Positions 36,493-38,778 of a stretch of DNA of 64,000 bases are shown here, piece after piece. Source of the DNA: Escherichia phage Turkey5; the sequence record PQ471516.1, one strand, 5' to 3'. A program made the position numbers and the translations under genes. The notes below the pieces were generated by a model that was given only the letters and a program-made list of their open reading frames with translations, was not told where the DNA came from and made no database searches. How positions within the stretch are numbered: the first letter of the stretch is position 1; every line of letters starts with the position of its first letter.

Positions 36493-38778
36493 ATGAACCT
36501 GACACAACTATTCAAGAAAAGCGACGAACTGGCAACCTCTATGGGTCATACTTTTTTGACAATTGACCATGTGAGTGCTACAGTACTGACAGTTGATAGC
36601 ATTGTTGACGTATTCAAGTCGATGGACATTGACGCTGCAAAGCTTCATGCACGTTTGATTGATTATTTGAAAAACAACCCAGTTCCACCAGCACCAAAAA
36701 GTACTTTAGATGATGACTCGAACCGTACTTCACTTCTAGTGAATCGCGTGATGCAGGAACTGTCTAAAAAAGCAGTGATTGAACAGCTAAATCGTGATGA
36801 TTTCTCCATTGATGCATATTTTGTTCTGTTTGAATGTTTGTCCTTCCCAAATACTGCATTCGAAGCAGTACTGAAAGAAGAAGGGGTTTCTTGTACTGAA
36901 GTAGCACGTACACTACAGAAACATGTAGAAGATATTGATACTGGCATCAACCTAAAAAGTATTAGCGACGAACCAACAGGGGACAAAAAAGTGGCTCAAC
37001 AGCAACCAGCATCTAAGCAGAAAAGTTTGGAAGATTACACTACCAACCTTACCGCACTAGCGAAGGAAGGTAAACTCGACCCAATGATTGGTCGTCAAAA
37101 AGAGCTTGCTTCTCTCGTTGAGACTCTTGCTCGTAAAACTAAGAAGAACGCAATCCTAACTGGTGAAGCTGGCGTAGGTAAAACTCAAATCGTTGATGGT
37201 TTGGCACAAGCAATCGCAAATGGTGATGTTCCAGATCATCTAAAAGATGTGGAACTACTGTCTCTGAACGTTGGTGCACTAACTGCTGGTACAAAATACC
37301 GTGGTGAGTTTGAAGAACGCATTGACAATCTTCTAAAAGAACTGAAGAAACGCGAAAACACCATCGTCTTCATCGATGAAATCCATATCATGGTTGGTGC
37401 TGGTTCTGCGAGCAACGGTTCAATGGATATGAGCAACATGCTCAAACCTGCTCTATCTCGTGGTGAGATTCGTGTCATCGGTGCAACCACTTATGACGAA
37501 TATCGTAAAAACATCGAGAAAGACAGTGCTCTATCACGTCGTTTCATGAAAATTGATGTTGTTGAACCAACAGTTGAAGAAACTCGTGAAATTATCAACG
37601 GTCTACAAAAGACTTATGAGAAATTCCACAATGTAACCTTCACTAAAGGTGCGATGGATGCAGTTATTACACTAAGTGATAAGTTCCTGAAGAACAAACA
37701 CTTCCCTGACAAAGCAATCGACCTAATGGATGCGTCAGCAGCGAAGAAACGTTCTCGTGACAATGGTAATGAAATTACTGTTGGTGATATCCAAGAAGTT
37801 GTTGCTGGAATCGCTAACCTAGACCTGAACGTAGTTGCTTGTACTGAAAGTGAGCGTATGCGTAGTCTTCCTGATGCACTTCGTTCTCGTGTATATGGTC
37901 AAGAAGAAGCAGTAACTAAATTGGTTGATAACGTGATGGTTGCTCGTGCAGGTCTACGTGAATCTTCCAGTGTTCAGGGTGCATTCATGTTTGTTGGACC
38001 ATCTGGTACTGGTAAAACTGAAATCACTAAAGCGTTGGCTGATGCAACTGGTTCTAAACTGATTCGTTTCGATATGTCTGAGTTCTCACAAGAACACACT
38101 GTGTCTAAACTTATTGGTTCACCTCCAGGTTATGTTGGTCACGATTCTGGTAACGGCCTACTGCTAGACCAGATTGAGCAATACCCGAATGCAGTGCTGC
38201 TACTTGATGAAATCGAGAAAGCAGATCGTAAAGTACTGTTGACTTTCCTTCAAGTTCTTGACGAAGGTCGTCTAACTGGTTCTCAAGGTAAGACTGTTTA
38301 CTTCAACAACGTAACAGTTGTTATGACAACTAACCTTGGTGCAGCAGACTCTACGAAACGTAGTATCGGTATGAGTGGTAGTGATACAGCACAGGATAAA
38401 GCGATTAAAGCTTTCCTACCGCCTGAATTCATCAACCGTATCGACAGTATCGTTACATTCAATGATTTGTCTTCTGATGCAATTCAGAGTATCATTGATA
38501 AATTCATGGGTAGTTTGAATGAACAAGTTAAAGACCGTGGAGTTAAGGTTTCTCTAACTAAAGCGGCTCGTGAATGGTTGGCGAAGAATGGCGTTAAGAA
38601 CGGAATGGGTGCTCGTCCAATGAAACGTACAATTGAACAGAATATCCGTGTTCCTCTGGCAAAAGAAATGCTTTGTGGTTCACTAGTTGATGGCGGTTCA
38701 GTAACATTTGATGTTATCAACGGTTCACTAGGCATTAAGCCAAAGCGTGTTAAAGCAGCAGATAAAGTAGAAGCATAA
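36493..38778 (+). CDS. clpA: ClpA-like two-ring AAA+ unfoldase (761 aa)
   Basis: Collinear with E. coli ClpA as recalled: D1 Walker A GEAGVGKT and Walker B IVFIDEIH; D2 Walker A GPSGTGKT and Walker B LLLDEIEKA; ClpP-docking-loop-like KRSIGM (ClpA has KSIGL); ClpA length, no ClpB middle domain. Confidence 0.85.
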   Translation: MNLTQLFKKSDELATSMGHTFLTIDHVSATVLTVDSIVDVFKSMDIDAAKLHARLIDYLKNNPVPPAPKSTLDDDSNRTSLLVNRVMQELSKKAVIEQLNRDDFSIDAYFVLFECLSFPNTAFEAVLKEEGVSCTEVARTLQKHVEDIDTGINLKSISDEPTGDKKVAQQQPASKQKSLEDYTTNLTALAKEGKLDPMIGRQKELASLVETLARKTKKNAILTGEAGVGKTQIVDGLAQAIANGDVPDHLKDVELLSLNVGALTAGTKYRGEFEERIDNLLKELKKRENTIVFIDEIHIMVGAGSASNGSMDMSNMLKPALSRGEIRVIGATTYDEYRKNIEKDSALSRRFMKIDVVEPTVEETREIINGLQKTYEKFHNVTFTKGAMDAVITLSDKFLKNKHFPDKAIDLMDASAAKKRSRDNGNEITVGDIQEVVAGIANLDLNVVACTESERMRSLPDALRSRVYGQEEAVTKLVDNVMVARAGLRESSSVQGAFMFVGPSGTGKTEITKALADATGSKLIRFDMSEFSQEHTVSKLIGSPPGYVGHDSGNGLLLDQIEQYPNAVLLLDEIEKADRKVLLTFLQVLDEGRLTGSQGKTVYFNNVTVVMTTNLGAADSTKRSIGMSGSDTAQDKAIKAFLPPEFINRIDSIVTFNDLSSDAIQSIIDKFMGSLNEQVKDRGVKVSLTKAAREWLAKNGVKNGMGARPMKRTIEQNIRVPLAKEMLCGSLVDGGSVTFDVINGSLGIKPKRVKAADKVEA

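Follow-up and report, generated by a model that had tools for sequence, protein, structure and literature searches.

A ClpA-type unfoldase gene in Escherichia phage Turkey5, probably belonging to a ClpAP(S)-type protease whose genes are scattered over the phage genome

With which peptidase would a full-length ClpA homolog encoded by a bacteriophage work, its host's or one of its own? The question is raised by a gene of Escherichia phage Turkey5, located in the 64,000-nucleotide stretch of sequence record PQ471516.1 that was analysed here (hereafter the window). The gene starts with ATG, runs from 36493 to 38778 on the plus strand and encodes 761 amino acids followed by a stop codon. A preliminary description of this DNA took the product for an unfoldase without a phage partner, which would load onto host ClpP to re-target proteolysis. 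Our analysis points to another reading, which we consider probable on sequence evidence: the gene would encode the unfoldase of a dispersed phage protease of the ClpAP(S) type, and not an orphan that depends on host ClpP. The gene family is already annotated in phages and mentioned in the literature. Complete unfoldase-protease-adaptor Clp sets are unusual in viruses, and we found no experimental study of such a virus-encoded set in the searchable literature.

The window is about 99% identical, across all 64 kb, to Escherichia phage vB_EcoM_JNE01, an Asteriusvirus of the Rak2-like jumbo phages with a genome of roughly 355 kb, whose corresponding protein (WOL22763.1) is 99.9% identical to the Turkey5 clpA-like product. 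The NCBIfam ClpA model TIGR02639 matched this product in a single stretch (754 bits; residues 2-740 vs profile positions 4-733), and phmmer against the PDB aligned it with E. coli ClpA (1ksf, E = 3.7e-180; residues 16-739 vs 19-733), which bears out its described collinearity with ClpA. Among the profiles of Clp families, the ClpA model fits as one continuous stretch, the ClpB, ClpV, ClpK and ClpG models matching only as two stretches. The PHROGs family phrog_4871 scored 1014 bits across the full length. The protein falls under the equivalog cutoffs of both ClpA models (754 vs 993 bits for TIGR02639, 654 vs 1350 bits for NF008263) and is, under the NCBI criterion and as far as sequence goes, a diverged, non-equivalog subfamily. 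Identities range from 52 to 100% inside the phage ClpA clade and are about 41% to cellular ClpA.

The gene is predicted to encode an intact ClpA-type unfoldase. Both AAA+ modules carry Walker A and B motifs, pore loops and arginine fingers; reading the motifs and aligning them to ClpA confirmed the two rings initially described. The D1 ATPase core (37162-37380, plus strand) comprises the Walker A motif GEAGVGKT (residues 224-231; 37162-37185), the pore loop KYR (residues 268-270; 37294-37302) and the Walker B motif IVFIDE (residues 291-296; 37363-37380). The D2 core (37996-38211, plus strand) comprises the corresponding GPSGTGKT (residues 502-509; 37996-38019), GYVG (residues 546-549; 38128-38139) and VLLLDE (residues 568-573; 38194-38211), while SRRF lies at residues 348-351 and GARPM at residues 706-710. 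A coiled-coil middle (M) domain of the ClpB type is absent from the Turkey5 protein, with which ClpB, ClpC and Hsp104 align in two stretches.

Identity to E. coli ClpA reaches 51% in D1 and 45% in D2 vs 19% in the N-domain, in keeping with the earlier remark that the N-domain is unlike that of host ClpA. This diverged Clp N-domain spans residues 1 to about 150 (36493-36942, plus strand) and is followed by a disordered linker up to about residue 178. Pfam Clp_N scored 19.6 bits on the protein, just below its cutoff of 20.7. An AlphaFold2 (AF2) model of the N-domain (pLDDT 80.4) displayed eight helices, and its top Foldseek matches in the PDB were all Clp/Hsp100 N-domains (TM 0.55-0.67), including the ClpA N-domain structures 1lzw_B, 1mg9_B, 1r6o_B and 1k6k. 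On this model, the N-terminus is a Clp N-domain of pseudo-dimeric eight-helix fold.

The KRSIGM segment noticed at the outset does lie at the position of the ClpP-docking loop: phmmer places 'krsigm' opposite 'rksigl', and I625-G626-M627 (38365-38373, plus strand) aligns column for column with the IGL of E. coli ClpA (617-619). The loop and the hydrophobic first position are kept in 111/111 members of the phage ClpA clade, and the flanks are conserved. The tripeptide itself varies, with IGM, LGL, IGV, MGM, MNM and IGG in the clade and IGA and MSM in further subclades; judged by model systems, the IGG, IGA, MNM and MSM of some subclades would dock poorly on ClpP.

Could this loop meet a ClpP encoded by the phage? 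A tblastn search of the 64-kb window, using ClpP and ClpS of both E. coli and phages as queries, gave nothing credible; the reported lack of a nearby ClpP or adaptor is thus correct, and the premise of the orphan-unfoldase claim holds for the window only. For ClpP and the ClpS-like protein we read the genome of JNE01, to which the window is about 99% identical, in place of Turkey5's own full genome. There, a ClpP homolog with an intact catalytic triad is encoded at 28365-29060, about 92 kb upstream of clpA (PF00574, 141 bits; best PDB ClpP match, E = 3.4e-36). The triad (S97, H122, D171) is kept in 67/67 members of the phage ClpP clade, which are 57-93% identical to each other and about 43-46% identical to cellular ClpP. 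In sequence comparison, phage ClpA falls into a deep clade confined to phages, and so does phage ClpP. The RefSeq name of the phage ClpP, head maturation protease, was rejected, the score of the cellular ClpP model TIGR00493 (150.7 bits) being far above that of the head-maturation model NF045542 (51.6 bits). Since a separate protease of the T4 gp21 prohead type (PF03420, 74.5 bits) adjoins the gp23-like capsid gene, the phage ClpP homolog is not the head protease. It shares phrog_94 with ClpP-related head-maturation proteases, but differs from them in being nearer to cellular ClpP and remote from head genes.

The IGL-binding pocket of ClpP was compared using residues from the ClpAP cryo-EM paper (bioRxiv 10.1101/820209). 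At positions L48, F49, A52, F82, L23, Y60, Y62, I90, M92, F112, L114 and L189, the JNE01 protein has V, W, S, S, M, T, Y, V, M, L, G and I, respectively. The phage pocket is mostly hydrophobic, with two clade-wide changes: L114 is G in 63/67 phage sequences (L in 40/43 cellular ones), and F82 has become N or S in 55/67, the cellular sequences having Y, F or L there in 41/43 cases. The nine ClpA-ClpP pairs that could be matched by phage were too few and too similar for a correlation between tripeptide and pocket.

A putative ClpS-domain protein is also encoded in JNE01, at 207834-208379, about 85 kb downstream of clpA (PF02617, family profile). The JNE01 protein scored 18.9 bits with PF02617 (cutoff 23) and its GAP32 ortholog 41.8 bits. 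Its AF2 model, built from 13 sequences, was too poor for a fold search (pLDDT 48.9), and the fold was assessed instead by a search of the PDB with the family profile, which matched ClpS chains only (best E = 6.4e-5). In Asteriusvirus the residues corresponding to N34, D36, M40 and H66 are D, P, A and N, respectively; the canonical N-degron pocket, formed by the N34 and H66 side chains, which bind the alpha-amino group of the substrate, and the M40 gate (PMC8346999), is therefore absent from the Asteriusvirus protein. Loss of H66 is still compatible with reading N-degrons, since the UBR1 N-domain likewise replaces this residue (PMC8346999). A literature search for residues of the ClpA N-domain that contact ClpS found none. 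The clpS-like gene of JNE01 adjoins one for a KTSC-domain protein; the idea of a DnaJ-like neighbour linking ClpA and the ClpS-like protein was rejected on a BLASTP comparison of this protein with PA5oct DnaJ (E = 0.35) and on Pfam.

Throughout the Rak2-like phages, clpA, clpP and clpS-like co-occur. Record counts for ClpS-like, ClpA and ClpP were 33, 32 and 33 in Escherichia phages, 10, 11 and 10 in Klebsiella phages, 8, 9 and 8 in Salmonella phages and 8 each in Erwinia phages, and all three proteins are present in the distant PA5oct and Atu_ph07. In JNE01 the genes do not form one operon, clpP and clpS-like lying about 92 kb and 85 kb from clpA; because they are unclustered, their association rests on co-occurrence in one lineage whose members also share most other genes. 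The gene clpA keeps its place between a block with a gp15-like tail-sheath stabiliser and a giant virion protein, on the strand opposite to theirs; the arrangement recurs in GAP32 and Vibrio phage 2.275.O, whose proteins are 61% and 47% identical, respectively; in PA5oct, clpA adjoins DnaJ, with a GroES-like gene near. In phAPEC6, mass spectrometry of the virion detected 62 proteins, including gp245 and gp248, the neighbours of the ortholog gp246c (88% identical), but not gp246c itself (PMC7247149).

The early suggestion that clpA has its own host-type promoter and terminator held up. A sigma70-type promoter with an extended -10 element (TTGACA-16-TG-n-TATAAT) is predicted at 36425-36452 on the plus strand, from a 12/12 consensus match only; its 16-nt spacer ends in TGA, directly before TATAAT. 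The window contains five perfect sigma70 matches (0.15 expected by chance), three of which have TTGACAA...(A/G)ATGTGATATAAT in common. The Shine-Dalgarno sequence AGGAG, read at 36483-36487 (plus strand), lies 5 nt ahead of the ATG. Downstream, a palindromic hairpin at 38782-38811, assigned to neither strand, would act as terminator (13-bp stem, -18.8 kcal/mol, z = -6.6); flanked by U/T runs on both sides, it separates the convergent clpA (plus strand) and 3346-aa virion gene (minus strand). As contrast class for neighbouring genes, the T4-type late promoter TATAAATA was not enriched (2 matches vs 6 expected), and no firm late motif was found when the upstream regions of the neighbours were read by eye. 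Near-consensus sigma70 promoters precede clpA (12/12), clpP (11/12 with TG) and the pair of IF3 and clpS-like genes (12/12), which makes transcription by host RNA polymerase probable for each of the clp genes. The infection cycle of PA5oct relies on host RNA polymerase according to its omics paper, whose main text holds no Clp gene-level data on expression timing.

Taken as a phage-encoded, ATP-dependent protease of the ClpAP type, the system would work as follows. The clpA product would be the subunit of a hexameric unfoldase, is not part of the virion, and has a diverged N-domain that, possibly together with the ClpS-like protein, would choose the substrates. The D2 loop with IGM would dock onto a ClpP tetradecamer at its apical pockets, and the polypeptide would be broken down in ClpP; the ClpP in question is most likely that of the phage, with its remodelled pocket. 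What the analysis established are the intact catalytic and docking motifs, the N-domain fold, the presence of a phage ClpP and its intact triad, and the co-occurrence of the genes; from these we infer the ClpP partner, the adaptor role, the timing and the substrates, which may be host proteins or phage proteins under quality control. The varying tripeptide, the replaced pocket residues and the N-domain with its 19% identity suggest a partly private system. More tentatively, and with considerable doubt on our side, the Rak2-like phages may possess an orthogonal ClpAP protease of their own, insulated from the host Clp network, that destroys chosen host proteins. Insulation would then have three sources: a ClpP docking pocket remodelled by the change of L114 to G, that of F82 to N/S and a conserved C-terminal tail; a docking loop of phage ClpA that co-evolves; and a ClpA N-domain that pairs, in a manner specific to the phages, with a ClpS-like adaptor of non-canonical pocket. 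The system would destroy, for instance, defence or housekeeping factors without titration by host substrates or adaptors.

A rival in which phage ClpA works chiefly with host ClpP, docking by way of IGM and redirecting host proteolysis to new substrates picked by its diverged N-domain, seems unlikely. In its favour, IGM resembles IGL chemically and occupies the same loop, and a perfect host-type sigma70 site precedes clpA. Host ClpP would be present from the onset of infection. Iyer et al. moreover proposed that a phage ClpS delivers targets to host ClpAP (PMC7824862). Yet the premise of a phage without ClpP is false at the genome level: JNE01 encodes both ClpP and a putative ClpS-domain protein, which co-occur with ClpA throughout the clade, leaving the phage with no need of host ClpP. 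What stands of the re-targeting proposal is a ClpA-type protein with an IGM docking loop; the argument from missing ClpP and ClpS does not. The wide drift of the tripeptide, although all hosts have a canonical ClpP, is a better fit to co-evolution with the remodelled pocket of the phage enzyme. Docking on host ClpP may occur but is no longer the simplest reading.

Quite unlikely, in our estimation, is a ClpP-independent unfoldase or chaperone that remodels or unfolds phage proteins and feeds no protease, acting for instance on very large structural proteins as the tail or baseplate is assembled. Such a role would agree with the conserved locus between the tail-sheath-stabiliser block and the giant virion protein, with the DnaJ and GroES-like neighbours in PA5oct, with the degenerate tripeptides (IGG, IGA, MNM, MSM) of some subclades and with the translocase or virion-assembly role suggested by Iyer et al. 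(PMC7824862). The synteny is weak evidence, however, since these phages have much of their gene order in common, and the loop with its hydrophobic first position is retained in every one of the 111 clade members, always alongside a ClpP with an intact triad; the protein is also absent from the phAPEC6 virion, although packaging is not required of a chaperone that serves assembly. The gene's own promoter and terminator and its strand, opposite to that of its neighbours, might further evoke a passenger or moron recently captured from the host and devoid of a phage-specific role. This was rejected as highly improbable on the depth of the phage-only clade, which comprises 111 or more clusters at 90% identity and shows conserved synteny, and on the identity of only about 41% to E. 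coli ClpA; the G+C content of the gene is also similar to that of the remainder of the window.

If insulated from that of the host, the phage ClpAP(S) set would amount to a degradation machine that belongs to the virus and follows substrate rules of its own, with a bearing on host takeover, anti-defence and the design of orthogonal degradation tools. Its closest known relatives are the ClpAs of other Rak2-like phages (121Q gp581, phAPEC6 gp246c, RaK2_00069 and GAP32_229; phrog_4871), orthologs of 61-88% identity at the same position, from which the Turkey5 protein, a member of the JNE01 lineage, shows no substantive difference. ClpB/Hsp104 and ClpC are, like phage ClpA, Class I Hsp100 proteins with two AAA+ rings and a Clp N-domain, but have a coiled-coil middle domain that the phage protein lacks. 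ClpB is devoid of a ClpP-docking loop. E. coli ClpA of the ClpAPS system (PDB 1ksf, 1r6b, 6w1z) has 758 residues vs 761 and the same N-domain-D1-D2 order; the phage protein is collinear with it over residues 16-739, with all ATPase motifs, pore loops and sensor-2, and both have a hydrophobic-Gly-hydrophobic tripeptide at the IGL position and no M-domain. The two differ in sequence (41% identity overall, 19% in the N-domain) and at the docking site, where the phage has IGM for IGL, then Ser for Ile620. An internal start site, Met169, is used in host ClpA; the phage protein has no Met at that position. Finally, clpS and clpA form an adjacent operon in E. coli, whereas the phage partner genes are dispersed.

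The 761-residue product of the clpA-like ORF (window 36493..38778, + strand) has the composition of a ClpA-type double-ring unfoldase, as the preliminary description proposed. Pfam recognizes AAA (first AAA+ ring, D1), AAA_lid_9, AAA_2 (second ring, D2) and ClpB_D2-small domains; the best NCBIfam model is ClpA (TIGR02639), which covers residues 2-740 in one stretch with 754 bits, whereas the ClpB, ClpV, ClpK and ClpG models align in two stretches only, and a ClpB-type middle domain is absent. The best PDB match is E. coli ClpA (E=3.7e-180, residues 16-739 against 19-733, without large gaps), and Walker A and B motifs are kept in both rings, along with the KYR and GYVG pore loops, SRRF and GARPM. 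In this alignment KRSIGM faces RKSIGL, which puts I625-G626-M627 at the site of the ClpP-docking tripeptide IGL (617-619 of E. coli ClpA), where it had been expected. Identity to E. coli ClpA reaches 51% in D1 and 45% in D2 but 19% in the N-domain, which thus differs from that of the host protein as claimed. The AF2 model of this N-domain (pLDDT 80.4) displays the eight-helix Clp N-domain fold, and its Foldseek matches are exclusively Clp/Hsp100 N-domains, including ClpA-N from ClpS complexes.

Escherichia phage vB_EcoM_JNE01 (OR670491.1, 355,583 bp, genus Asteriusvirus; hereafter JNE01) is 99.4% identical to window 36000-39000, where 121Q, PBECO4, phAPEC6 and about 30 further Rak2-like jumbo coliphages display 80-82% identity. 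The flanks (1-25000 and 39001-64000) align collinearly with JNE01 84186-148912 (about 99% identity), which by sequence comparison assigns the window to a jumbo myovirus of the JNE01 lineage. Window 39001-64000 matches JNE01 123176-148912 in two pieces, with JNE01 about 740 bp longer, which indicates that the two phages differ by an indel at some point downstream of clpA. The window carries tail and baseplate genes, among them a T4 gp15-like tail-sheath stabilizer and a 3346-aa virion protein (38813-48853, − strand, convergent with clpA), whose phAPEC6 ortholog gp245 (381.9 kDa) was found in virions by mass spectrometry. Further giant structural genes in the window include those encoding 2120 aa (15000-21362) and 1628 aa (21501-26387). 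Two genes upstream of clpA, amid the tail genes, lies a NUDIX/MutT hydrolase gene (33074-33538, − strand), a placement shared with phAPEC6, GAP32 and Vibrio phage 2.275.O. A mechanical ORF call with a TTG start (34891-36507, − strand, 538 aa) extends over the beginning of clpA; with the start annotated in JNE01, the product has 497 aa and ends at window 36381, and a 111-bp divergent intergenic region holding the clpA promoter then remains.

This promoter (TTGACA-16-TG-n-TATAAT, 36425-36452, + strand) matches the sigma70 consensus at 12/12 positions, AGGAG stands five bases upstream of the clpA ATG, and a 13-bp hairpin (-18.8 kcal/mol, z=-6.6) separates clpA from the convergent 3346-aa gene, in agreement with the host-type promoter and terminator initially attributed to the gene. 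Perfect sigma70 sites number five in the window against 0.15 expected. Two are in tandem, 92 bp apart (6382-6409 and 6474-6501, + strand), and share with the clpA promoter the extended motif TTGACAAG...GATGTGATATAAT, so that these three look like a phage promoter family.

The 64-kb window contains no detectable ClpP or ClpS, as first noted. JNE01, however, encodes both elsewhere, and the dependence on host ClpP deduced from their absence nearby thereby loses its premise: the preliminary description was right in every particular observed, and its interpretation is only partly supported. The ClpP homolog (231 aa, JNE01 28365-29060, about 92 kb upstream of clpA) scores 141 bits with PF00574 and 150.7 bits with TIGR00493, whereas the ClpP-related head-maturation model reaches only 51.6, and its best PDB ClpP match has E=3.4e-36. 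Ser97, His122 and Asp171 are kept in 67/67 sequences of the phage clade, within which identity is 57-93% before dropping to about 43-46% beyond. A role as capsid protease was rejected, as a separate T4 gp21-type prohead protease (PF03420) adjoins the gp23-like capsid gene; the "prohead core scaffold and protease" of phAPEC6 was found in virions. RefSeq nevertheless names the ClpP homolog "head maturation protease", and the PA5oct ClpA "porphyrin biosynthesis"; both names (NC_025447.1, NC_027364.1, NC_071039.1) are likely annotation errors inherited from PHROG names. The ClpP homolog of CBB, CBB_104, was detected in virions by mass spectrometry through one peptide only, at 4.5% coverage (PMC5259590, Table 4), which may reflect contamination or low-level packaging.

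In the E. coli ClpAP structure (bioRxiv 10.1101/820209), twelve ClpP residues make up the pocket that receives IGL; most of these positions remain hydrophobic in the phage clade. Two positions depart: L114 is Gly in 63/67 phage sequences and Leu in 40/43 cellular ones, and F82 is Asn/Ser in 55/67 versus Tyr/Phe/Leu in 41/43. The phage proteins also end in an extra tail of about 20 residues that is conserved within the clade (...G.Y.VKRRGG.EEWV), and they carry a 3-residue insertion close to the C-terminal end.

The ClpS-domain protein (181 aa, JNE01 207834-208379, about 85 kb downstream of clpA) lies in a conserved block comprising RNase H, Dda, two small genes, an IF3-like gene, the ClpS-like gene and a KTSC protein. 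The JNE01 copy scores 18.9 with Pfam ClpS, below the cutoff of 23, and the GAP32 ortholog 41.8; the family profile retrieves only ClpS chains from the whole PDB (best E=6.4e-5), and the annotation of 121Q already names its copy "protease adapter protein ClpS". Compared with the canonical N-degron reader, whose pocket residues have described roles (PMC8346999), the substitutions N34→D, D36→P, M40→A and H66→N predict a non-canonical pocket. The IF3-like gene (IF3_N and IF3_C) directly precedes it, the pair spanning JNE01 207320-208379 behind a perfect sigma70 promoter. This pairing is kept in GAP32, Yen9-04 and 121Q; the E. coli clpS-clpA genes are closely followed by infA (IF1), and the proximity of initiation-factor genes to clpS in both may be coincidental. 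Near-consensus sigma70 promoters precede clpA (12/12), clpP (11/12 with TG) and the IF3-clpS-like pair (12/12), which suggests transcription of all three units by host RNA polymerase, on which the related phage PA5oct depends; the expression timing of the three genes is something we infer.

ClpA, ClpP and the ClpS-like protein are all present in Asteriusvirus, Alcyoneusvirus (RaK2), Mimasvirus (GAP32), Eneladusvirus, CBB, the 7t3/SE_PL group and XbC2, and likewise in the distant PA5oct and Atu_ph07, and their record counts agree per host genus. The phage-only ClpA clade comprises at least 111 clusters (52-100% identical), with an abrupt fall to about 41% against cellular ClpA, a depth that excludes recent host capture. 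Within it, the docking tripeptide varies (IGM, LGL, LGM, IGV, IGA, IGG, MGM, MNM, MSM, LGF, IGL) between nearly invariant flanks, TTNLGA and FLPPEFxNRID, and both the N-domain and the ClpS-like protein evolve fast.

Most likely, the ClpA-like ATPase would serve a phage-encoded ClpAP-type protease as its unfoldase, partnered by the phage ClpP, with the ClpS-like protein as accessory. The variable tripeptide, the altered ClpP pocket and tail, and the fast-evolving N-domain and ClpS-like protein fit a phage-specific pairing of partners without proving it. Hijacking of host ClpP, or mixed use of both ClpPs, is possible, although the former was proposed from the lack of ClpP nearby and has lost that premise. 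Degenerate docking tripeptides in some subclades suggest a ClpP-independent assembly chaperone, as does the conserved position in the tail module: in GAP32 and a Vibrio phage (47% identity) clpA is likewise found on the opposite strand, with the tail-sheath-stabilizer block on one side and a giant virion protein on the other. This role is weakened by the constant co-occurrence with a ClpP of intact active site; the phAPEC6 ortholog gp246c is not among 62 virion proteins identified by mass spectrometry, where both flanking structural proteins were detected.

No experimental study of the phage Clp set was found in the literature searched. The family is already annotated (121Q gp581 "ClpA-like protein"; PHROGs phrog_4871, 1014 bits), and Attai et al. 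reported ClpX, ClpA, ClpB, ClpP and ClpS in Atu_ph07 and ClpA as highly conserved across most Rak2-like phages (PMC6102473). The clpA-like gene is therefore a known gene, correctly described, whose interpretation needs revision. The tripeptide variability within the clade and the altered ClpP pocket and tail go beyond existing annotation. Iyer et al. described subsets of jumbo phages with ClpP, ClpS and ClpA or ClpX, proposing host targeting, or translocases and assembly aids (PMC7824862); the main value here lies in the testable idea that Rak2-like phages operate a ClpAP(S) machine that is in part their own.
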